This document shows, in pieces, positions 5,098-41,100 of a stretch of DNA of 42,122 bases. Position 1 is the first letter of the stretch. Each line of letters opens with the position of its first letter. The translations under genes were made by a program, and so were the position numbers. This stretch comes from a virus (lineage: Duplodnaviria; Heunggongvirae; Uroviricota; Caudoviricetes), in the IMG/VR virus record IMGVR_UViG_2541047913_000004. One strand, 5' to 3'. The notes below the pieces were generated by a model that was given only the letters and a program-made list of their open reading frames with translations, ran no database searches and was not told the DNA's origin.

Positions 5098-5125
5098 ATT
5101 ATGTATCTCAAAGGTACATTGTCAA
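5098..5125 (-). promoter_or_regulatory. pL-like early-left promoter with overlapping operator-like palindromes (OL)
   Basis: Minus strand has a perfect -35 TTGACA (complement of 5120-5125), a 16-nt spacer and -10 CATAAT (complement of 5098-5103). The palindrome TACAT-T-ATGTA (5095-5105) overlaps the -10, and a GGTACA motif is shared with the cI-cro intergenic operators. Confidence 0.55.
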
Positions 5126-5128
5126 GTA

Positions 5129-5150
5129 TAAAAAAACCTGCCGAAGCAGG
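5129..5150 (-). terminator. Rho-independent terminator downstream of the repressor gene
   Basis: Hairpin cctgc-cgaa-gcagg (5137-5150) followed on the minus strand by a run of 7 U (complement of 5130-5136), 15 nt after the cI stop. Confidence 0.6.
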
Positions 5151-5164
5151 TTCATAAACATTGA

Positions 5165-5839
5165 TTAAGCTTTGATTTTGTATCTTCTTGGTTTTCCTGA
5201 GAAAATCACAGTTCCAATTATAGAGCAATTACCGTTGATCTTAATGTAAGGCTCAGGCCAGTTTGGGTTTAACGCTTTGAGATAACGCTGTGTCCCATCT
5301 TCTATCAACCTTTTGAAGGTGGTTTCACCTGTATCGTGCATCAATGCAATAACGTCGTCACCGTGGCAGGCAGGTACTTCAGGATCGACAAAAATCATGT
5401 CTCCCGGGCGGTACTCATCAATCATTGAATCACCTATCACCCGCAAGATATAAGTCATTTCCCCACAGGGTACAGGGCAGGGATACGTTTCTGCTGTGCT
5501 CAAATCAACCTCAGAATATCCAACTTCTTTCCATGCTCCGGCCTGTACCCATGATATGACAGGGACTAATGTGATTTGTTTATTAGTGATTGAAACATCA
5601 GGTTTTTTTGTGATGTTCGTTGTCTGGTGTTCTTGATCGAGCCATCCGACAGGCAGGTCGAAACATTTTTCTATGTGTCGTGCCATGCTGTCACCGATAT
5701 TTTTAGTAGCACCATCTCCCATAAACCTGCTGGTCTGGGTTGGCTCGCGATCAATCATAGTGGCAAAGGAAGAATTCCCGCCAACACCATCTCTCAGTTT
5801 TCTGGCGTTAGACCGCCGGATGTCATGGATTGTTTTCAT
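5165..5839 (-). CDS. cI: CI-type prophage repressor with LexA-like S24 autopeptidase domain, 224 aa
   Basis: C-terminal domain carries the Ser nucleophile in ...VIGDSM... and a downstream Lys (...TFKRL...), as in LexA/CI self-cleaving repressors. Divergently arranged with a Cro-like gene across an operator-containing intergenic region. Confidence 0.85.
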   Translation of the reverse strand: MKTIHDIRRSNARKLRDGVGGNSSFATMIDREPTQTSRFMGDGATKNIGDSMARHIEKCFDLPVGWLDQEHQTTNITKKPDVSITNKQITLVPVISWVQAGAWKEVGYSEVDLSTAETYPCPVPCGEMTYILRVIGDSMIDEYRPGDMIFVDPEVPACHGDDVIALMHDTGETTFKRLIEDGTQRYLKALNPNWPEPYIKINGNCSIIGTVIFSGKPRRYKIKA

Positions 5840-5929
5840 AACGAAATTAAAACCCTCGTACCGTTAAGGTACAAGTATCTTGAAGGTTCATTTCAATCAT
5901 GTAATATGTACATCGGAGGTACATATTGT
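5840..5929. promoter_or_regulatory. OR-like region: pR (rightward), probable pRM (leftward), operator palindromes
   Basis: Plus strand has -35 TTGAAG (5880-5885), a 16-nt spacer and -10 TAATAT (5902-5907) ahead of a GGAGG Shine-Dalgarno and the cro ATG. Palindromes GTACC-N5-GGTAC (5858-5872), ATGTA-ATATG-TACAT (5899-5913) and TGTAC-N7-GTACA (5907-5923) overlap the promoter. Confidence 0.6.
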
Positions 5930-6130
5930 ATGAAAGCGTATTGGGACTCTTTAACCAAAGAACAGCAGGGCGAGTTGGCCGGAAAAGTTGGCTCAACACC
6001 TGGCTACTTACGGCTGGTTTTCAATGGCTATAAAAAAGCCAGTTTTGTGCTGGCTAAAAAACTTGAGCAATGCACGTCAGGTGCAATTACGAAATCTGAC
6101 TTAAGACCGGATATCTATCCGAAAGATTAG
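5930..6130 (+). CDS. cro: Cro/YdaS-like HTH regulator, 66 aa
   Basis: Small ORF divergent from cI with a GGAGG Shine-Dalgarno 9 nt upstream of the ATG; helix-turn-helix-like segment ...GSTPGYLRLVFNGYKKASF... Confidence 0.75.
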   Translation: MKAYWDSLTKEQQGELAGKVGSTPGYLRLVFNGYKKASFVLAKKLEQCTSGAITKSDLRPDIYPKD

Positions 6131-6369
6131 CAGAACACTTTCAATTTTTAACCACAGAACGATGAGGCTAATCGTGGGTAAGCATCACTGGAAAATAGAA
6201 AAACAGCCTGAGTGGTACGTGAAAGCTGTCAGAAAAACTATCGCGGCGTTGCCGGGTGGTTACGCTGAAGCGGCTGATTGGCTCGATGTAACAGAAAACG
6301 CTTTATTCAACCGCCTGAACCGCCCCGGGAATCCTGGAGACTAAACTTCCTGAGAAAGAGGTAAACAGG

Positions 6370-6696
6370 ATGACTAAAAATACTCGTTTTTCCCCCGAAG
6401 TCCGTCAACGGGCAGTCCGTATGGTTCTGGAAAGTCAGAGCGAATATGACTCACAATGGGCGACAATTTGTTCCATTGCTCCAAAGATTGGCTGTACGCC
6501 GGAGACTCTGCGTGTCTGGGTTCGCCAGCATGAGCGGGATACCGGGGGCGGTGATGGAGGGCTCACCACCGCTGAACGTCAGCGTCTGAAAGAGCTGGAA
6601 CGTGAAAATCGTGAACTGCGCCGCAGTAACGATATCCTTCGCCAGGCTTCCGCTTATTTTGCGAAGGCGGAGTTCGACCGCCTCTGGAAAAAATGA
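6370..6696 (+). CDS. IS629 OrfA (transposase N-terminal HTH protein), 108 aa
   Basis: HTH and leucine-zipper-like sequence typical of IS3-family OrfA; ends in an A6 run (6688-6693) that overlaps the orfB start. Confidence 0.9.
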
Positions 6697-7583
6697 TGCC
6701 ACTGCTGGATAAGCTGCGTGAGCAGTACGGGGTCGGACCGCTATGCAGCGAACTGCATATTGCCCCGTCAACGTATTACCACTGTCAGCAACAGCGACAT
6801 CATCCTGATAAACGCAGTGCCCGTGCGCAGCGCGATGACTGGCTGAAGAAAGAGATACAGCGCGTATACGATGAAAATCACAAGGTATACGGTGTGCGTA
6901 AAGTCTGGCGTCAGTTGTTACGGGAAGGTATCAGAGTGGCCAGATGCACTGTGGCACGTCTCATGGCGGTTATGGGACTTGCCGGTGTTCTCCGGGGTAA
7001 AAAGGTCCGTACGACCATCAGCCGGAAAGCCGTTGCCGCAGGCGACCGCGTAAACCGTCAGTTCGTGGCAGAACGACCTGACCAGCTGTGGGTGGCTGAT
7101 TTTACTTACGTCAGCACATGGCGGGGCTTCGTCTATGTGGCGTTCATCATTGATGTGTTTGCCGGATACATCGTGGGGTGGCGGGTCTCATCGTCCATGG
7201 AAACGACATTCGTGCTGGATGCACTGGAGCAGGCGTTATGGGCCCGTCGACCGTCCGGCACGGTCCATCACAGTGATAAAGGTTCTCAGTATGTATCGCT
7301 GGCCTACACACAGCGGCTTAAGGAAGCCGGATTACTGGCATCAACAGGAAGTACAGGCGACTCGTATGACAACGCGATGGCGGAGAGCATCAATGGTCTT
7401 TACAAAGCGGAGGTAATACACCGTAAGAGCTGGAAAAACCGTGCAGAAGTGGAACTGGCCACACTCACGTGGGTGGACTGGTATAACAATCGACGATTGC
7501 TGGAAAGGCTGGGCCATACTCCTCCGGCAGAAGCAGAAAAAGCTTATTATGCTTCCATCGGAAACGATGATCTGGCAGCCTGA
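6693..7583 (+). CDS. IS629 OrfB (DDE transposase catalytic domain), 296 aa
   Basis: DDE/RNase H-fold integrase-like region (...WVADFTYV... ...HSDKGSQY... ...DNAMAES...). Lies in the -1 frame relative to orfA, so an OrfAB fusion by -1 frameshifting at the A6 run is expected. Confidence 0.9.
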
Positions 7584-8034
7584 GTTCACAGATAAAACAC
7601 TCTCCAGGAAACCCGGGGCGGTTCAGCCTTCGTGCAGATGGCGATCAGATTTTCCCGCTGGGATGGGCAATGGTTTTACAGCGTGCTGGTGGCACTCACT
7701 TCATTGCTGATGCTGTGGCGCAGTCTGCAAATGGCGTCTTTGTGTCTCTTCCTGACGTCGAGGATGTGGACAACGCCGATATTAACCAGCGCCTGCTGGA
7801 AGTCATTGAACAGATCGGCAGTTATTCAAAACAGATTCGTTCAGCAATTGAAGACGGTGTAGTGGAACCGCATGAGAAGACAGCAATTAACGACGAGCTG
7901 TACCTCTCAATTTCGAAGCTGCAGGAGCATGCAGCACTGGTCTACAAAATTTTTTGCATTTCAGAAAGTAATGACGCCCGCGAGTGTGCAGCTCCGGGCG
8001 CCGTGGCGTGTCGTGACTGTGGAGAAACTAACGC

Positions 8035-8393
8035 ATGAACAGTTTAACAACACACTACCGTCGCTCGCAACTGATTGCGCTTCCTGTACCGGGTGGAAAA
8101 GCGAAGGTGGAGTATTGCTATGCAGTAAATGTACCAGGTGACAGGGAAATTGTAACCCACAGCTTTGCAGAGTGGGCTGTGGGTGATTTCAACCGGCAGA
8201 AGGAGACAGTCCTTTGCGACAAGTTAACCGCTGGTTCAAAGATCACTACGGAGTGCCCGTCAGAGTCATTCGTTGGGAGCCGGAAACACAACGTGTTATC
8301 TACCTCCGCGAAGGCTATGAGCATGAGTGCTTCAGCCCGCTCGAACAGTTTCGTCGTAAATTCAGGGAAATAGAGGTCGGTCATGAGCACTAA
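8035..8393 (+). pseudogene. Hypothetical phage gene with apparent frameshift (two-frame ORF)
   Basis: Frame A (ATG 8035) looks protein-like for about 60 codons and then degenerates. Frame B opens at 8187, has no ATG, and encodes a plausible ...[47 protein letters not shown]... tail ending at 8393. Consistent with a 1-nt indel near 8190-8225 or a sequencing error. Confidence 0.4.
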
Positions 8394-9324
8394 ATTAACC
8401 GGCTATGTATGGGATGGTTGCGCTGCATCAGGCATGAAATTATCCAGCGTGGCAATTATGGCCCGCCTGGCTGATTTCAGTAATGACGAAGGTGTGTGCT
8501 GGCCATCAATTGAAACCATTGCCCGCCAGATTGGCGCGGGGATGAGTACCGTCAGAACGGCTATCGCACGGCTGGAAGCAGAAGGCTGGTTAACGCGTAG
8601 GGCGCGTCGCCAGGGTAACCGCAATGCGTCGAATGTTTATCAGCTTAACGTTGCGAAGCTTCAGGCAGCGGCATTTTCTCAACTGTCAGATTCTGACCCG
8701 TCAAAATCTGACGCATCAAAATCTGCCCCGTCAAAATTTGATGCGTCGAAATCTGGCAAAAAAGCGGGTTTTCACCCGTCAGAATCTGGTGGGGATCCGT
8801 CAGTAAAATCAAAACATGATCCGTCAGATAAAAAAACTTCTCGTCCGGACGCTTCGCAACCGGACACGCAGACGGCTGAACAGGATTTTTTAACTCGCCA
8901 TCCTGATGCGGTTGTATTCAGCCCTAAAAAGCGCCAGTGGGGGACGCAGGATGATTTGACCTGCGCACAGTGGCTCTGGAAAAAAATCATCGCCCTGTAC
9001 GAGCATGCCGCCGAATGTGACGGCGAGGTGGTTCGTCCCAAAGAACCGAACTGGACAGCCTGGGCAAACGAAATTCGCCTGATGTGTGTGCAGGATGGTC
9101 GTACTCATAAACAAATCTGCGAGATGTACAGCCGCGTCAGTCGCGATCCGTTCTGGTGCCGTAACGTGCTCAGCCCGTCGAAGCTGCGGGAAAAATGGGA
9201 TGAGCTTTCCCTGCGCTTATCGCCGTCCGTCAGCACGTACACCGAAAAACGCGAAGACCCGTACTTCAAAGCCAGTTACGACAACGTGGACTACAGCCAG
9301 ATCCCGGCAGGATTCAGGGGGTGA
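8383..9324 (+). CDS. Replication initiator (lambda O-like, N-terminal HTH), 313 aa
   Basis: N-terminal winged-HTH-like region; the central part contains iterated DPSKSDASKS-type peptide repeats that reflect DNA iterons; occupies the O position after cro/cII. Confidence 0.8.
   Translation: MSTKLTGYVWDGCAASGMKLSSVAIMARLADFSNDEGVCWPSIETIARQIGAGMSTVRTAIARLEAEGWLTRRARRQGNRNASNVYQLNVAKLQAAAFSQLSDSDPSKSDASKSAPSKFDASKSGKKAGFHPSESGGDPSVKSKHDPSDKKTSRPDASQPDTQTAEQDFLTRHPDAVVFSPKKRQWGTQDDLTCAQWLWKKIIALYEHAAECDGEVVRPKEPNWTAWANEIRLMCVQDGRTHKQICEMYSRVSRDPFWCRNVLSPSKLREKWDELSLRLSPSVSTYTEKREDPYFKASYDNVDYSQIPAGFRG
8698..8835 (+). repeat. Replication-origin-like iterons inside the initiator gene
   Basis: About 15-bp units CCGTCAAAATCTGAC / GCATCAAAATCTGCC / CCGTCAAAATTTGAT / GCGTCGAAATCTGGC in tandem (8698-8756), with further copies at 8775-8789, 8797-8810 and 8821-8835 ending in an A-rich tract. 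Same organisation as ori-lambda inside O. Confidence 0.6.
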
Positions 9325-9815
9325 TCATGAGTCTTTTGAATGACGTTCAGAAATTCATTGAAGCCCATCCGGGGTGTACTTCCGGAGACATTGCGGATGC
9401 TTTTGCAGGTTACTCACGACAGCGCGTTCTGCAGTCAGCAAGCAAGTTACGTCAGAGTGGGCGTGTGGCTCACCGTTGTGAAGGGGATACACGCAGACAT
9501 TTCCCGCGGCTGACTGAGATACCGCAGGAGCCGGAACCGCAACCAGTTCGTGAATCCAGACCTGTGCGCAATTTCTATGTCGGCACTAACGATCCCCGGG
9601 TGATTTTGTGCCTGACCCGCCAGGCGGAAGAACTGGAGTCCAGGGGCTTATACCGTCGTGCTGCAACGGTGTGGATGGCGGCATTCCGTGAAAGCCACTC
9701 CCAGCAAGAGCGAAACAATTTTCTTGCGCGTCGTGAGCGGTGTTTACGGAAAAGCAGCAAGCGCGCTGCATCGGGTGAAGAGTGGTATCTGTCAGGGAAT
9801 TACGTGGGGGCTTAA
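9321..9815 (+). CDS. PerC-family (Pch-like) transcriptional regulator with N-terminal winged-helix-like region, 164 aa
   Basis: C-terminal segment ...LTRQAEELESRGLYRRAATVWMAAFRESHSQQERNNFLARRERCLRK... resembles the PerC/Pch regulator signature as I recall it; coupled by ATGA overlap to the replication gene. Confidence 0.55.
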   Translation: MIMSLLNDVQKFIEAHPGCTSGDIADAFAGYSRQRVLQSASKLRQSGRVAHRCEGDTRRHFPRLTEIPQEPEPQPVRESRPVRNFYVGTNDPRVILCLTRQAEELESRGLYRRAATVWMAAFRESHSQQERNNFLARRERCLRKSSKRAASGEEWYLSGNYVGA

Positions 9816-10468
9816 TGAGTAATAAATATTGCCAGGCGCTGGTGGAGCTGCGGAACAAACCAGCCCATGAACTGAAGGAAGTGGGCGATCAGTGGCGCAC
9901 GCCGGACAACATTTTCTGGGGAATTAACACCCTGTTTGGCCCGTTTGTTCTGGATCTGTTTACTGATGGTGATAACGCCAAATGCGCCGCGTATTACACT
10001 GCGGAAGACAACGCGCTGGCGCATGACTGGTCAGAACGTCTTGCGGAGCTTAAAGGTGCTGCCTTTGGTAATCCCCCGTACAGCCGCGCCAGTCAGCATG
10101 AGGGGCAATACATCACCGGCATGCGTTACATCATGAAGCATGCCAGTGCCATGCGTGATAAAGGCGGGCGCTATGTTTTCCTGATCAAAGCTGCCACCAG
10201 CGAAGTGTGGTGGCCGGAAGATGCAGACCATATTGCTTTTATTCGCGGGCGTATTGGTTTTGAACTGCCAGCCTGGTTTATCCCGAAGGACGAGAAGCAG
10301 GTGCCGACAGGCGCTTTCTTCGCTGGTGCTATTGCTGTTTTCGACAAGACCTGGAAGGGACCGGCAATCAGCTACATCGGGCGCGATGAACTTGAGGCAT
10401 GTGGTGAGGCCTTTCTGGCGCAGGTTCGCCAGCAGGCGGAAAAACTGGTCAGGGAGATGGCGGCATGA
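9815..10468 (+). CDS. Phage DNA N6-adenine methyltransferase (Dam-like), 217 aa
   Basis: NPPY catalytic motif (...FGNPPYS...); start at the internal Met coupled by TAATG to the upstream gene. Confidence 0.85.
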   Translation: MSNKYCQALVELRNKPAHELKEVGDQWRTPDNIFWGINTLFGPFVLDLFTDGDNAKCAAYYTAEDNALAHDWSERLAELKGAAFGNPPYSRASQHEGQYITGMRYIMKHASAMRDKGGRYVFLIKAATSEVWWPEDADHIAFIRGRIGFELPAWFIPKDEKQVPTGAFFAGAIAVFDKTWKGPAISYIGRDELEACGEAFLAQVRQQAEKLVREMAA

Positions 10469-10791
10469 CGACGTTAACTCAATGCCAGCAGCAGGTGCTG
10501 GATATGCTGATTTCTTACCAGCAAGAACGTGGCTTTCCGCCAACCAATCAGGAGGTGGCAACCATGCTGGGATACCGTTCGGTGAATGCAGCGGTGGAGC
10601 ATCTTCGCGCACTGGAGAAAAAAGGCGTCATCACGATAAAGCGTGGCGTGGCCCGGGGGATAACTCTTCATACCGCGGTGAAGGACGACGACAGCGAGGC
10701 GGTCGGGATTATCCGCGCACTGCTTGCCGGTGAGGAAAACGCCAGGCTGCGTGCAGCCCACTGGTTACATGAGAGGGGCCTGAAAGTATGA
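10465..10791 (+). CDS. LexA N-terminal DNA-binding-domain-only protein, 108 aa
   Basis: ...QQVLDMLISYQQERGFPPTNQEVATMLGYRSVNAAVEHLRALEKKGVI... resembles the LexA winged-HTH domain; no S24 peptidase domain is present. Confidence 0.55.
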   Translation: MTTLTQCQQQVLDMLISYQQERGFPPTNQEVATMLGYRSVNAAVEHLRALEKKGVITIKRGVARGITLHTAVKDDDSEAVGIIRALLAGEENARLRAAHWLHERGLKV

Positions 10792-11177
10792 AGCTGATCT
10801 TGCCTTTCCCGCCCAGCGTGAACACGTACTGGCGACACCCCAACAAAGGGGCGTTTGCTGGTAAGAGTCTGATAAGCGCAGCGGGGCGCAAATTCCAGAG
10901 CGCGGCGTGCGCAGCAATAGTTGAGCAGTTACGTCGTCTGCCGAAACCAACGTCGGCACCTGCTTCAGTGGAGATCGTGTTGTTTCCTCCGGATAACCGG
11001 ATCCGCGATCTGGACAACTATAACAAGGCGCTGTTTGACGCCCTGACCCATGCGGGTGTGTGGGAAGACGACAGTCAGGTGAAAAGAATGCTGGTGGAGT
11101 GGGGACCGGTTATCCCGAAAGGGAAGGTCGAGATCACTATCAGTAAGTACGAGAAAACGGCGGGTGCAGCCGCCTGA
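10788..11177 (+). CDS. rusA: Holliday-junction resolvase RusA, 129 aa
   Basis: RusA-family length and acidic catalytic residues (...DLDNYNKALFDAL...VWEDDSQV...); lies in the nin-like region before Q. Confidence 0.85.
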   Translation: MKLILPFPPSVNTYWRHPNKGAFAGKSLISAAGRKFQSAACAAIVEQLRRLPKPTSAPASVEIVLFPPDNRIRDLDNYNKALFDALTHAGVWEDDSQVKRMLVEWGPVIPKGKVEITISKYEKTAGAAA

Positions 11178-11196
11178 TCAAGAGGAGAAACGAAGT

Positions 11197-12006
11197 ATGA
11201 ATAATCTGATGGTCATTGATGGTATTGAAGTTCGTCGTGATGCTTATGGGCGTTACAGCCTGAACGATCTGCATCGCGCAGCAGTAGCATCTGGTGCAAA
11301 TGCCAGAACCAAGGAGCCGGGAAAGTTTCTTTCCAGCCAACAAACTGTTGAGCTTGTTCATGAATTGACCAACACCCAGAATTTGGGTGTTGACCCGGTG
11401 AGTGTGATTCATGGGGGAAATGAACGGGGAACGTATGTCTGCAAGGAACTGGTGTATGCCTATGCAATGTGGATCAGCCCGTCATTCCATCTGAAGGTGA
11501 TCCGTACTTTCGATATGGTAACCAGCGCACCGGAAAAATTATCCGGACAGGCTGCTGACAAGATGCAGGCTGGCGTGATCCTGCTGGACTTTATGCGCCG
11601 GGAGTTAAACCTGTCTAACTCTTCAGTGCTTGGTGCCTGTCAGAAACTCCAGGAGGCTGTTGGCTTACCGAATCTGGCACCGCGCTATGCCATTGATGCT
11701 CCTGCTGATGCACACGATGGCTCAAGTCGCCCGACACTGTCACTGAGTGCACTGCTGAAACAGTATGGTATACGCCTGACGGCTAATCAGGCATATCACC
11801 AGATGGTGAAACTGGGGATCGTCGAGCAGCGCGAACGATACAGCCGTACAGCGATTAACAACATCAAAAAATTCTGGTCGCTGACAGCGAAAGGTTGCAT
11901 GTTCGGCAAGAACATCACCAGTCCCGCAAATCCGCGCGAGACACAGCCGCATTTCTTCGAATCCCGATTCCCTGAGCTGTTAAAGCTGCTCGATACCGTT
12001 CATTGA
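11197..12006 (+). CDS. KilA-N domain protein, 269 aa
   Basis: Start at the internal Met (MNNLMVIDGIEV...) with an AGGAG Shine-Dalgarno upstream; N-terminal KilA-N-like domain. Confidence 0.7.
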   Translation: MNNLMVIDGIEVRRDAYGRYSLNDLHRAAVASGANARTKEPGKFLSSQQTVELVHELTNTQNLGVDPVSVIHGGNERGTYVCKELVYAYAMWISPSFHLKVIRTFDMVTSAPEKLSGQAADKMQAGVILLDFMRRELNLSNSSVLGACQKLQEAVGLPNLAPRYAIDAPADAHDGSSRPTLSLSALLKQYGIRLTANQAYHQMVKLGIVEQRERYSRTAINNIKKFWSLTAKGCMFGKNITSPANPRETQPHFFESRFPELLKLLDTVH

Positions 12007-12007
12007 G

Positions 12008-13003
12008 GTGACCGTGAGAGCACTACTGACCCCTGAAATTGCCCCGCGTATGGGGATCGTATTGTTCAGGCCAGGTTCAGAGCTGATGCCCCTGTTTATG
12101 CAGGGGCGTGTCCTGCTGGAGCCTGAGCCGGAGCGTTATTCATCTTTCGCCAGTGGTGCCGTTCCGGCGGCATCACAACCGCTGGCGGATGATCCTGCCG
12201 TTCGGGCCGTGTTCCGCAATGAGGCAGTGATCCGTCGTGCTGGTGGCGTGGAATGTCTTGAAAGCTGGTTACTTCGTGAAAAAGGCTGCCAGTGGCCTCA
12301 TTCCGACTGGCACAGCGAGAACATGACCACAATGCGACACGCTCCGGGTGCAATCCGTCTGTGCTGGCACTGCGATAACCAGCTGCGCGATCAGTTCACG
12401 GAACGGCTGGAATCAATGGCAACGGATAACTGTGCCCGCTGGGTGTTGTCTGTTGTGCGTCGGGATCTCGGTTTTGATGACAGTCACGTTGTGACAATGC
12501 CGGAACTGTGCTGGTGGCTGATTCGTAATGATCTGGCGGATGCCTTACCGGAAAGTGCAGCCCGTAAGGCACTGAGATTACCGAAGCCTGTTGTGCCGTC
12601 TGTTACCCGGGAAAGTGACCTTGTGCCTTCGGTTCCTGCCACCAGCATCATCCAGGATAAGGCGAAAAAGGTGCTGGCGCTGAAAGTGGATCCGGAGTCG
12701 CCGGAGTCTTTTATGTTACGCCCAAAACGTCGCCGCTGGGTTAATGAAAAGTACACGCGCTGGGTTAAGACACAGCCGTGTGCATGTTGTGGAAAGCCAG
12801 CTGATGATCCGCATCATCTGATAGGCCATGGTCAGGGTGGAATGGGTACAAAAGCGCATGACCTTTTTGTGCTGCCTTTGTGCAGAAAACACCACGACGA
12901 ACTGCATGCGGATACCGTGGCATTTGAAGAGAAGTATGGCTCCCAGCTGGAGCTGATATTTCGTTTTATCGATCGCGCACTGGCGATTGGTGTGCTGGCC
13001 TGA
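12008..13003 (+). CDS. DUF968-family protein (YdfU-like) with C-terminal Cys/His nuclease-like motif, 331 aa
   Basis: GTG start 2 nt after the upstream stop; C-terminal ...[21 protein letters not shown]...[10 protein letters not shown]... suggests an HNH-like zinc-binding module. Confidence 0.65.
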
Positions 13004-13020
13004 TTTTGTGGAGAAAGTTA

Positions 13021-13404
13021 ATGCGTGATATTCAGATGGTTCTTGAACGTTGGGGAGCGTGGGCGGCTAATAATCATGAAGATGTGACCTGGTCGTCCAT
13101 TGCCGCCGGTTTTAAGGGATTAATTCCTTCAAAAGTAAAATCTCGCCCGCAATGTTGTGACGATGACGCGATGATTATTTGCGGGTGCATGGCCCGTCTG
13201 AAAAAGAACAACAGCGATTTGCACGATTTATTAGTAGATTATTATGTAGTCGGTATGACATTCATGTCACTGGCAGGTAAGCATTGCTGCTCTGATGGTT
13301 ATATCGGGAAAAGGTTACAGAAGGCTGAGGGCATAATTGAAGGGATGTTAATGGCATTAGATATCCGGTTAGAGATGGATATCGTTGTTAATAACTCTAA
13401 TTAA
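13021..13404 (+). CDS. quuD: Late-gene antiterminator Q (QuuD-type), 127 aa
   Basis: Start at the internal Met ([24 protein letters not shown]...); Cys-rich motif [16 protein letters not shown]; position immediately before the late-operon leader and lysis genes. Confidence 0.8.
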
Positions 13405-38175: not shown

Positions 38176-41100
38176 ATGGCAGTAAAGATTTCAGGTGTAC
38201 TGAAAGACGGCACAGGAAAACCGGTACAGAACTGCACAATCCAGCTGAAAGCAAAACGTAACAGTACCACTGTGGTGGTGAACACGCTGGCCTCAGAAAA
38301 TCCGGATGAAGCCGGGCGTTACAGCATGGACGTTGAGTACGGTCAGTATAGCGTTATTCTGTTGGTGGAGGGATTCCCGCCGTCACATGCCGGGACCATC
38401 ACCGTGTATGAAGATTCTCAACCCGGTACGCTGAATGATTTTCTCGGTGCCATGACGGAGGATGATGCCCGTCCGGAGGCACTGCGACGTTTTGAACTGA
38501 TGGTGGAAGAGGTGGCGCGTAACGCGTCCGCGGTGGCACAGAACACAGCAGCCGCGAAGAAGTCAGCCAGCGATGCCAGCACATCAGCCCGTGAGGCGGC
38601 AACCCATGCGACTGATGCTGCAGGCTCAGCACGCGCAGCCAGCACGTCAGCCGGACAGGCCGCGTCGTCGGCTCAGTCAGCGTCTTCCAGCGCAGGAACG
38701 GCATCAGCAAAGGCCACTGAAGCATCAAAAAGTGCTGCCGCTGCAGAGTCCTCAAAAAGCGCGGCGGCCACCAGTGCCGGTGCCGCGAAAACGTCTGAAA
38801 CGAATGCTGCAGCGTCACAACAATCAGCAGCCACTTCTGCATCCACCGCGACCACGAAAGCGTCAGAAGCTGCCACCTCAGCCCGGGATGCGTCGGCTTC
38901 AAAAGAGGCGGCAAAATCATCAGAAACGAGCGCAGCCTCGAGCGCCAGTAGTGCAGCCTCCTCGGCTACGGCGGCAGGAAATTCCGCGAAGGCGGCAAAA
39001 ACGTCCGAGACGAACGCCAGGTCTTCTGAAACGGCAGCGGGACAGAGCGCCTCAGCTGCGGCAGGCTCAAAAACAGCGGCTGCGTCGTCTGCCAGTGCCG
39101 CGTCAACAAGTGCCGGGCAGGCCTCAGCCAGTGCCACCGCTGCCGGAAAGTCGGCAGAAAGTGCCGCATCGTCTGCTTCAACAGCCACAACGAAGGCTGG
39201 CGAAGCCACTAAACAGGCCAGCGCAGCAGCGAGGTCTGCTTCCGCAGCGAAGACATCCGAAACGAACGCGAAAGCGTCGGAAACCCGTGCAGAATCCTCA
39301 AAAACGGCAGCTGCATCGTCAGCCAGTTCGGCGGCGTCATCGGCCTCATCGGCGTCTGCTTCAAAAGATGAGGCGACCAGACAAGCGTCAGCAGCGAAGA
39401 GTAGCGCCACGACGGCATCCACGAAGGCGACAGAGGCAGCTGGCAGTGCGACGGCGGCAGCTCAGAGCAAAAGTACGGCGGAATCCGCGGCAACGCGCGC
39501 CGAGACAGCAGCTAAACGGGCAGAGGATATTGCATCCGCCGTGGCGCTTGAGGATGCGAGCACGACGAAAAAGGGGATAGTACAGCTCAGCAGTGCGACC
39601 AACAGCACGTCTGAAACGCTGGCGGCAACGCCAAAGGCAGTAAAAGCAGCCAATGACAATGCTGAGAAACGTCTGCAGAAAGACCAGAACGGCGCTGATA
39701 TACCCGATAAGGGACGCTTCCTGAACAACATTAACGCGGTCAGTAAAACAGACTTTGCTGATAAGCGTGGTATGCGTTATGTGCGGGTTAACGCTCCTGC
39801 AGGTGCAACATCTGGAAAATATTACCCTGTTGTTGTTATGCGTTCTGCTGGCTCAGTAAGCGAACTGGCATCAAGGGTCATTATCACCACGGCAACGCGA
39901 ACCGCAGGCGATCCGATGAATAACTGCGAGTTTAACGGATTTGTTATGCCTGGTGGCTGGACTGACAGGGGGCGTTATGCTTATGGAATGTTCTGGCAAT
40001 ATCAAAACAATGAACGAGCCATCCACTCAATAATGATGAGTAATAAGGGCGATGATTTGCGCTCTGTGTTCTATGTTGATGGCGCTGCTTTCCCTGTTTT
40101 TGCGTTTATCGAAGATGGCCTGTCAATATCCGCACCTGGTGCTGATCTCGTTGTTAATGATACGACCTATAAGTTTGGGGCAACAAATCCAGCGACTGAA
40201 TGTATCGCGGCGGACGTTATCCTTGATTTTAAGAGTGGGCGTGGTTTTTATGAGTCCCATTCGTTAATCGTTAACGATAACTTGTCGTGCAAAAAACTTT
40301 TTGCCACAGACGAAATTGTAGCGCGTGGTGGTAATCAGATTCGAATGATAGGTGGGGAGTATGGGGCATTATGGCGTAATGATGGCGCTAAAACTTACCT
40401 GCTGCTTACCAATCAAGGTGATGTTTATGGTGGCTGGAATACATTAAGACCGTTTGCTATTGATAACGCAACCGGCGAACTGGTTATTGGAACCAAACTG
40501 TCTGCAAGTCTGAACGGTAACGCATTGACAGCAACAAAGCTGCAAACGCCAAGACTGGTTTCTGGGGTTGAGTTTGATGGTTCAAAAGATATTACTTTAA
40601 CCGCCGCGCATGTGGCTGCTTTTGCCAGAAGGGCAACGGATACATATGCCGATGCGGATGGTGGCGTTCCCTGGAATGCCGAATCAGGCGCTTACAATGT
40701 CACCCGCTCTGGCGACAGCTATATTCTGGTTAACTTCTATACCGGAGTCGGAAGTTGCCGGACCCTGCAGATGAAGGCGCATTACAGAAATGGAGGTCTG
40801 TTCTACCGTTCCTCAAGAGATGGCTATGGTTTTGAGGAAGGCTGGGCAGAAGTTTATACCTCGAAAAATCTTCCACCAGAAAGCTACCCAGTTGGCGCAC
40901 CAATTCCGTGGCCATCAGATACCGTTCCGTCTGGTTATGCCCTGATGCAGGGGCAGACTTTTGACAAATCTGCATACCCGAAACTTGCAGTTGCTTATCC
41001 GTCAGGCGTGATCCCTGATATGCGTGGCTGGACGATTAAGGGCAAGCCCGCCAGTGGTCGTGCCGTATTGTCTCAGGAACAGGACGGCATTAAATCGCAC

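Follow-up and report, generated by a model that had tools for sequence, protein, structure and literature searches.

YfdN, a two-domain protein of the PerC/ANR superfamily encoded between the replication initiator and dam genes of a lambdoid prophage

The yfdN gene and its expression context

The DNA considered here is the 42,122-nucleotide IMG/VR virus record IMGVR_UViG_2541047913_000004 (Caudoviricetes), a near-complete lambdoid prophage; the whole of this stretch is referred to below as the window. Between a gene for an O-like replication initiator and dam lies a gene that corresponds to yfdN of Escherichia coli K-12. A preliminary description had marked an open reading frame (ORF) at positions 9321–9815 as a regulator of the PerC/Pch type, and its coordinates and plus-strand frame are borne out by the sequence. 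The ORF begins with GTG at 9321, encodes 164 residues and contains the peptide quoted in that description; this is also the form found in RefSeq. The ATG at 9327 is the likelier start, because distant homologues begin with MSL(L/M) and the record of Escherichia phage PhiR29_1 annotates a 162-residue form. The yfdN coding sequence is therefore placed at 9327–9815 on the plus strand (162 residues plus the stop codon), as supported by the ORF list, matches to Pfam PerC and PHROG 1324, identity to the K-12 protein and the substitution ratios given below. Residue numbers throughout refer to the 162-residue form.

The gene overlaps or abuts its neighbors on both sides. The stop codon of the initiator gene (TGA, 9322–9324) overlaps the alternative yfdN GTG at 9321, and a Shine–Dalgarno sequence, AGGGGG, can be read at 9316–9321 (plus strand), 5 nt upstream of the ATG and within the last codons of the initiator. 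At the other end, the yfdN stop codon and the dam start codon share the sequence TAATG at 9813–9817. This arrangement of Shine–Dalgarno sequence, stop and start implies that translation of yfdN is probably coupled to that of the initiator. No sigma-70-like promoter was found in 6800–10600, so yfdN is expected to be co-transcribed with the initiator gene. Further upstream in the same operon, an insertion sequence of the IS3 family (IS1203/IS629-like) occupies ~6300–7626, with orfA at 6370–6696 and orfB at 6693–7583. It is inserted in the cII-like gene ymfL, is missing from PhiR29_1 and may be polar on expression of the initiator and yfdN.

The ratio of nonsynonymous to synonymous substitution rates (dN/dS) is 0.27 for yfdN as a whole. 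By segment it is 0.08 for the N-terminal domain, 0.33 for the C-terminal domain and 0.48, the highest value, for the linker that joins them; within a divergent clade of yfdN genes it lies between 0.20 and 0.27. These ratios indicate that both domains of YfdN are under purifying selection. Opposite-strand ORFs within 9321–9815 were treated as spurious, because the family matches and the purifying selection fall in the plus-strand frame.

Identity and distribution of YfdN

The window protein is identical to K-12 YfdN (b2357, from the cryptic prophage CPS-53) at 157 of 164 residues (96%). It matches PHROG 1324, a family labeled ‘transcriptional activator’, over residues 1–161, i.e. full length (E = 5.6e-78), and the queried DNA from 9000 to 10100 is 99.9% identical to PhiR29_1. 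The same gene is present in phage SfII (SfII_42, ‘PerC transcriptional activator family protein’), in SfV (orf40) and in mEp460, and on the Shiga toxin (Stx) Stx2a and Stx2c phages of O157:H7. The order initiator–yfdN–dam is shared by K-12, SfII, SfV, Stx2a_1447 and PhiR29_1. Under the RefSeq name ‘yfdN: PerC family transcriptional regulator’, the gene is found in 2674 of the 5426 complete genomes of E. coli; in K-12 the protein is still annotated as ‘uncharacterized protein’. The ORF is thus real and its PerC-family annotation is already known. YfdN has left a few traces in the literature: a hit in an over-expression screen for glycogen, membership of a five-gene region linked to filamentation, and a place in a predicted interactome cluster. 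A search with PADLOC for a role in anti-phage defence gave no match.

When 1.84 billion representative proteins were searched with a profile, only 195 clusters matched at E ≤ 1e-3, and these fall into three groups. The first consists of two-domain proteins of 133–165 residues, with identities to the window protein down to 23%; the second of proteins of 55–100 residues that contain only the PerC core, many of them just 55–69 residues long; and the third of fragments that contain only the N-terminal domain. In rare fusions (P0020/P0021, P0026/P0027, P0040/P0041 and P0082), YfdN is linked with Dam, with RusA or with the N-terminal HTH_36 domain of an initiator. Most of these are single-member clusters, and they are probably products of deletion or frameshift in decaying prophages rather than real architectures.

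Domain architecture and fold

A model of YfdN was computed with AlphaFold2 from 17 homologues, with a mean predicted local distance difference test score (pLDDT) of 80. The model contains an N-terminal winged helix and a C-terminal three-helix core, joined by a disordered linker and followed by a short tail. The winged helix spans residues 1–60 (9327–9506, plus strand) and consists of three helices (residues 3–13, 19–25 and 31–44) and a β-hairpin wing (residues 47–60), with pLDDT ~90. The winged-helix-like N-terminal domain proposed in the preliminary description is therefore supported by the model and by its structural matches. Conserved features include an NPG turn (P15, G16) after the first helix and basic residues at positions 40 and 49; the pI of the domain is 9.4. 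Its best structural matches include winged helices that bind proteins.

The linker (residues 61–89; 9507–9593, plus strand) is rich in Pro and Glu, varies in length and sequence among homologues, with gapped alignment columns, and has pLDDT <50 at residues 63–79. The core that follows (residues 90–149; 9594–9773, plus strand) is formed by helices at residues 90–105, 109–122 and 126–149, with pLDDT >90, and is strongly basic (pI 11.3). In an alignment of 32 family members, A100, L103, R111 and A112 are invariant, R136 and C139 are nearly so, and E104, G107 and W116 are present in 24–27 of the 32. The antiparallel pair formed by helices A and B, together with the capping third helix, superposes on tetratricopeptide repeat (TPR) units. 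No TPR sequence profile appears among the Pfam matches at E ≤ 1, and a profile search of the sequences in the PDB gave only noise (E > 0.5) and no structure of a PerC or ANR protein. We infer that the core amounts to one TPR-like unit capped by a helix, which would make it a protein-binding module.

The tail (residues 150–162; 9774–9812, plus strand) carries the motif [WF][YF]L[AS]G[NR][YF]xG, which reads W153-YLSGNYVG-A162 in the window, and is modeled with low confidence as a β-hairpin. Of 30 homologues, with identities that reach down to 23%, 28 keep its glycines G157 and G161. The two-domain architecture is maintained across the family, as marked by the NPG turn, the PerC core and the C-terminal motif.

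Relationship to PerC and the Pch proteins

The resemblance of the C-terminal part to the PerC family, also proposed in the preliminary description, holds at the level of both profiles and pairwise comparison. Pfam PF06069 (PerC) matches residues 98–149 with E = 2.2e-9 and 37.9 bits, above its gathering threshold of 22.6 bits, and the match is limited to model positions 5–56 of 90. We compared YfdN by pairwise BLASTP with PerC from plasmid pMAR2 of enteropathogenic E. coli (EPEC) E2348/69 and with PchA, PchD and PchE of O157:H7 Sakai, and the four matches range from E = 1e-5 to 2e-10. The best is to PchE (40% identity over 52 residues, E = 2e-10), followed by PchA (43% over 44 residues, E = 2e-8), PerC (37% over 46 residues, E = 2e-6) and PchD (33% over 46 residues, E = 1e-5). 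The five-way alignment has eleven invariant positions: A100, L103, E104, G107, R110, R111, A112, W116, R129, R136 and C139. YfdN thus shares the PerC core and does not have the full-length PerC architecture, although core-only members do occur in the family, as noted above.

Overlap with the ANR family

The same core is also recognized by the model of the ANR (AraC negative regulator) family. NCBIfam NF033650 (ANR) matches residues 96–142 over 47 of its 54 positions (E = 2.3e-5), with a score of 24.1 bits that lies below the curated cut-off of 32. Other YfdN-like proteins score 17.8–28.1 bits, and PerC, PchA, PchD and PchE match the ANR model at the same positions with 13.6–18.2 bits. P0207, an 81-residue protein that the YfdN profile retrieved, exceeds the curated thresholds of both models (72.4 bits for PerC and 45.1 bits for ANR), so the two curated families overlap. 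Judged from these scores, the labels ‘activator’ and ‘negative regulator’ cover a single superfamily. The sign of regulation by YfdN cannot be read from a family name, because its core fits the ANR model about as well as those of PerC and the Pch proteins do.

The ANR consensus of Santiago et al. comprises A10, E14, A22, W26, A29, W43 and R47, distributed over three helices (PMC4983702). The YfdN counterparts are A100, E104, A112, W116, A119, F132 and R136; the first five are the same in identity and spacing, and the last two lie one residue closer, with W43 replaced by F132. ANR proteins bind both H-NS and AraC-type activators, the latter being inactivated; Aar in particular binds the linker of AggR as well as H-NS (PMC4983702, PMC10148876).

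YfdN could accordingly be an anti-activator of the ANR type, one that inactivates an activator of the AraC/XylS family, H-NS or both, as Aar and Rnr do or as the island protein EcCIMP1_025 appears to do at LEE1. The extent of the NF033650 match, the higher scores of some YfdN-like proteins, the consensus residues, five of seven of which keep their spacing, the overlap of the curated families and a TPR-like, protein-binding fold suited to such a role all speak for this reading. Against it, the YfdN score falls short of the curated cut-off, ANR proteins are small single-domain proteins encoded beside an AraC-type gene whereas the annotation of PhiR29_1 lists no gene of the AraC family, and an extra winged helix points to targeting by some other means. 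We regard it as possible but doubtful.

The replication module and the yfdN slot

The gene order in the module is cI, cro, ymfL (cII-like, Pfam CP76), ymfM, the O-like initiator gene, yfdN and dam, followed by a lexA-DBD-like gene, which encodes a LexA DNA-binding domain (DBD), and by rusA, kilA-N, ydfU (HNH) and Q. The initiator gene (8383–9324, plus strand) is recognized by Pfam HTH_36 and, at 2e-134, by PHROG 391, ‘replication initiation O-like’. The replication module of the window (5100–13400) contains no lambda-P, DnaC or DnaB gene, nor do the related yfdN modules examined, and yfdN occupies the slot in which lambda has P. In all 40 loci found by similarity to YfdN (28–100% identity), an ORF of at least 150 residues adjoins yfdN, the two being −4 to +2 nt apart, and in every locus examined this ORF is an O-like initiator.

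These initiators belong to at least three unrelated types, only 20–34% identical to one another, yet all end in …DYSxIPxGFRG. In the window this C-terminal tail is DYSQIPAGFRG (9289–9321, plus strand) and is invariant across the three types. The tail was found together with yfdN in 112 of 121 loci selected by the motif, and in 38–39 of the 40 selected by YfdN; it was also noted in L016, in L109 and at L005:10962–10982. Since the tail codons overlap the yfdN ribosome-binding site, we considered whether the tail is conserved merely through that overlap. This explanation was rejected: the tail is encoded by 27 synonymous DNA variants in which all four-fold sites vary, which places the selection on the peptide and not on the ribosome-binding site.

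An exclusive pairing between the tail and YfdN is likewise ruled out. In the Sakai prophage Sp4, ECs_1073 (L005:9894–11738 locus) ends in the same tail and is followed, in the yfdN slot, by ECs_1074, a DnaC-like loader that matches PHROG 50, ‘DnaC-like helicase loader’, at 2.9e-83 and served as the positive control. Locus L109 has the tail without yfdN, and intact tails also stand beside the yfdN deletion alleles described below. YfdN itself shows no similarity to helicase loaders or AAA+ motifs in Pfam, PHROGs or NCBIfam.

The contexts of other PerC-core genes were compared as well. In a P4-like element of Sakai (Sp7, L003:6519–7460), pchE lies directly 3′ of genes for a primase and a single-stranded DNA-binding protein. 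The PerC-family genes on plasmids (L179, L180) adjoin a divergently transcribed gene for a 244-residue helix-turn-helix regulator, not replication genes, so PerC genes are not generally tied to replication genes. What surrounds a PerC-core gene depends on the type of mobile element.

Other features of the module deserve mention. Within the O-like gene, 8671–8793 holds a series of direct repeats, five to six in number and ~15 bp long, that are TCAAAATCTGACGCA-like; they encode a serine- and lysine-rich SDSDPSKSDASKS... segment and look like origin iterons, by analogy with the lambda ori inside O. The Q antiterminator-like protein contains, near its N-terminus, a segment near-identical to the initiator tail, DYSxIxAGF(K/R)G, located at 13105–13119, which reads VDYSPIAAGFKG in L016. 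When the window is translated in six frames, AGF[RK]G is found at two places only. The segment common to the initiator and Q may be a short linear motif for a shared partner, probably one of the host. Downstream of dam, at 10465–10791, a 108-residue protein consists of a LexA DNA-binding domain without a protease domain (Pfam PF01726, 2.6e-19). It is kept downstream of yfdN and dam in most related phages and could compete with LexA at SOS boxes.

A recurrent in-frame deletion of yfdN

An identical in-frame deletion that removes yfdN codons 27–158 is present in seven IMG/VR loci (L077, L081, L090, L128, L132, L143 and L144), in phage cdtI (AB285204, at 38422–38474) and in 116 complete E. coli genomes. 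The deletion allele is a 30-codon ORF, MSLLNEVQKFIEAHPGCTSGDIADAF followed by YVGA and the stop codon. Phage cdtI reportedly forms infective particles. The allele retains the TAATG overlap with dam and stands beside intact initiator tails, on several initiator and single-nucleotide polymorphism backgrounds. This configuration suggests selection to keep the coupling of dam while YfdN is lost. The title of the source paper terms phage cdtI an ‘inducible lambdoid prophage’. Because the identical deletion occurs in phage cdtI and in 116 genomes, YfdN is dispensable, and an essential role in replication is therefore disfavored.

The position of yfdN leaves room for a lesser part in replication, in which YfdN would act as an accessory in the helicase-loader slot, for example through a TPR-like module that binds the IPxGFRG tail of the initiator. 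TPR domains often bind C-terminal peptides. The close abutment in 40 of 40 loci, its persistence across at least three unrelated types of initiator, the lack of P, DnaC or DnaB genes in these modules, the loader that follows the same tail in Sp4 and the protein-level selection on the tail are all consistent with such a role. It is nonetheless unlikely: the deletion persists on different initiator backgrounds with the tail intact, L109 has the tail without yfdN, YfdN has no sequence similarity to loaders, and short PerC/ANR proteins carry the same core without an initiator partner. A broader version, which we consider quite unlikely, would make YfdN an adaptor of the replication module and not a transcription factor of the classical kind. 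Its TPR-like unit would bind the initiator IPxGFRG, and perhaps the Q segment, and where the phage has no loader gene of the DnaC/P type it would tune the firing of the origin or the switch from early to late. PerC, Pch and ANR proteins as a whole would then be single-TPR adaptors that bind peptides.

The proposed link to the locus of enterocyte effacement

The preliminary description also suggested that YfdN, as a relative of the Pch proteins, might connect the prophage with the LEE (locus of enterocyte effacement), and it took the Pch proteins to be LEE activators. The latter statement stands for part of the family. PerC and PchABC activate LEE1 through relief of H-NS silencing (PMC4764244), and PchA, PchB and PchC activate ler at least 4-fold; PchD has no effect on ler and PchE a less than 2-fold one (PMC5931665). 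Pch proteins relieve silencing by H-NS, StpA and Hha, yet H-NS was not co-precipitated with PchA (PMC4764244). Among the PerC-like proteins of phage-inducible chromosomal islands (PICI), those of EDL933 (PchE) and CFT073 leave LEE1 unaffected, and EcCIMP1_025 represses it, with a similarity to ANR noted by the authors (PMC11773190). For PchE, over-expression is reported to affect curli and flagella (PMC6265319, PMC7369912). Membership of the PerC family thus does not predict activation of the LEE, because published members show opposite signs.

The distribution of yfdN also bears on this question. The LEE (escN–escV) is present in 697 of the 5426 complete E. coli genomes, against 2674 with yfdN, so at least 1977 carriers of yfdN (74%), K-12 among them, have no LEE. 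The LEE therefore cannot be the conserved target of YfdN, although a side effect on it in LEE-positive hosts, which Stx2 phages of O157:H7 could bring about, is conceivable.

A Pch-like YfdN that activates ler/LEE1, and so couples the prophage to type III secretion and virulence, is in our judgment very unlikely. The PerC core in YfdN is genuine, and the presence of yfdN on the Stx2a and Stx2c phages of O157:H7 leads one to expect that induction turns it on in LEE-positive hosts. In the work of Uhlich et al. (2018), yfdN is called ‘the K12 unique PerC homologue’ and was deleted from an MG1655 ler::lacZ reporter strain (PMC5931665). These points are outweighed by the excess of carriers without the LEE, the missing C-terminal half of PerC and PchA–E, the slight or absent effect on ler of PchD and PchE, which carry the same core, and the inert or repressing behavior of island-borne PerC-like proteins at LEE1. 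In addition, the literature examined yielded no experiment on YfdN itself and no data on its activity at ler. As a link from prophage to LEE virulence YfdN is thus unsupported, since most carriers lack the LEE, the C-terminal half is missing and family membership is not predictive; the proposed connection is speculative.

A further view, that yfdN is a decaying or non-functional remnant whose PerC match reflects no present function, is extremely improbable: the deletion alleles are tolerated and the K-12 gene lies in a cryptic prophage beside truncated yfdO and yfdM, but both domains show purifying selection, full-length two-domain homologues with conserved motifs extend to 23% identity, and the complete genomes recorded for isolated phages such as PhiR29_1, SfII and SfV contain yfdN.

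A proposed accessory regulator encoded in the early operon

The explanation that we favor, with moderate confidence, is that YfdN, a member of the PerC/ANR superfamily encoded in the early operon, serves as a non-essential accessory regulator, working through a winged helix together with a TPR-like module. The identity and architecture of the protein are near certain, and its homology to the superfamily, its fixed place after the initiator gene and its dispensability are also shown by the data; we infer its action as an accessory regulator. When the early-right operon is switched on, by induction or infection, YfdN would be made together with the O-like initiator and Dam. The winged helix would most likely hold YfdN on DNA or on a partner protein, leaving the TPR-like PerC/ANR module to make protein–protein or nucleoprotein contacts. 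Such contacts might resemble the remodeling by Pch proteins of H-NS/StpA/Hha silencing, or the sequestration of AraC-type activators and H-NS by ANR proteins such as Aar. The outcome would be either anti-silencing or anti-activation.

A two-domain PerC/ANR protein is encoded in about half of E. coli genomes and on Stx2 phages. If YfdN does remodel H-NS silencing or sequester transcription factors on induction, it would couple prophage induction to host gene expression, and possibly to virulence in LEE-positive strains.

Comparison with known systems

The closest counterpart is K-12 YfdN, whose gene has the same flanks in reduced form, as an O fragment (yfdO), yfdN and a dam fragment (yfdM). 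The K-12 gene lies in a prophage remnant and the window gene in a near-complete lambdoid prophage; otherwise the two encode the same protein.

YfdN has in common with PerC and the Pch proteins a core of ~50 residues, A..LE..G.YRRAA..W...(E)R....RR..C, and all of them are encoded on mobile elements, PerC on the EAF plasmid of EPEC and PchA, PchB and PchC on prophages of enterohemorrhagic E. coli. The C-terminal half of PerC and PchA–E (model positions 57–90, NxxxIKxAV...MG) is missing from YfdN. PerC and the Pch proteins are single-domain proteins of 89–104 residues, whereas YfdN, at 162 residues, has an added 60-residue winged helix and a linker. PchD, PchE and the PerC-like proteins of P4-like islands and PICI (EcCIEDL933, EcCICFT073 and EcCIMP1_025) resemble YfdN in carrying this core, and pchE, like yfdN, directly follows replication genes. 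They do not behave as activators of ler and so show that the family name leaves the function open to variation. Unlike YfdN, they are short and single-domain, do not contain a winged helix and retain the PerC C-terminal half.

The lambda P and DnaC-like loaders, such as ECs_1074, share with YfdN only their position, directly after the initiator gene and coupled to it. There is no likeness in sequence or fold, and YfdN has no ATPase motif. The ANR proteins (Aar, Rnr and Cnr) and the YfdN core both consist of three helices and appear to be modules of a protein-binding kind, in YfdN with a TPR-like fold. ANR proteins are single-domain proteins of 4–10 kDa encoded beside an AraC-type activator, whereas YfdN has double that size and a fused winged helix, and no gene of the AraC type adjoins its own.

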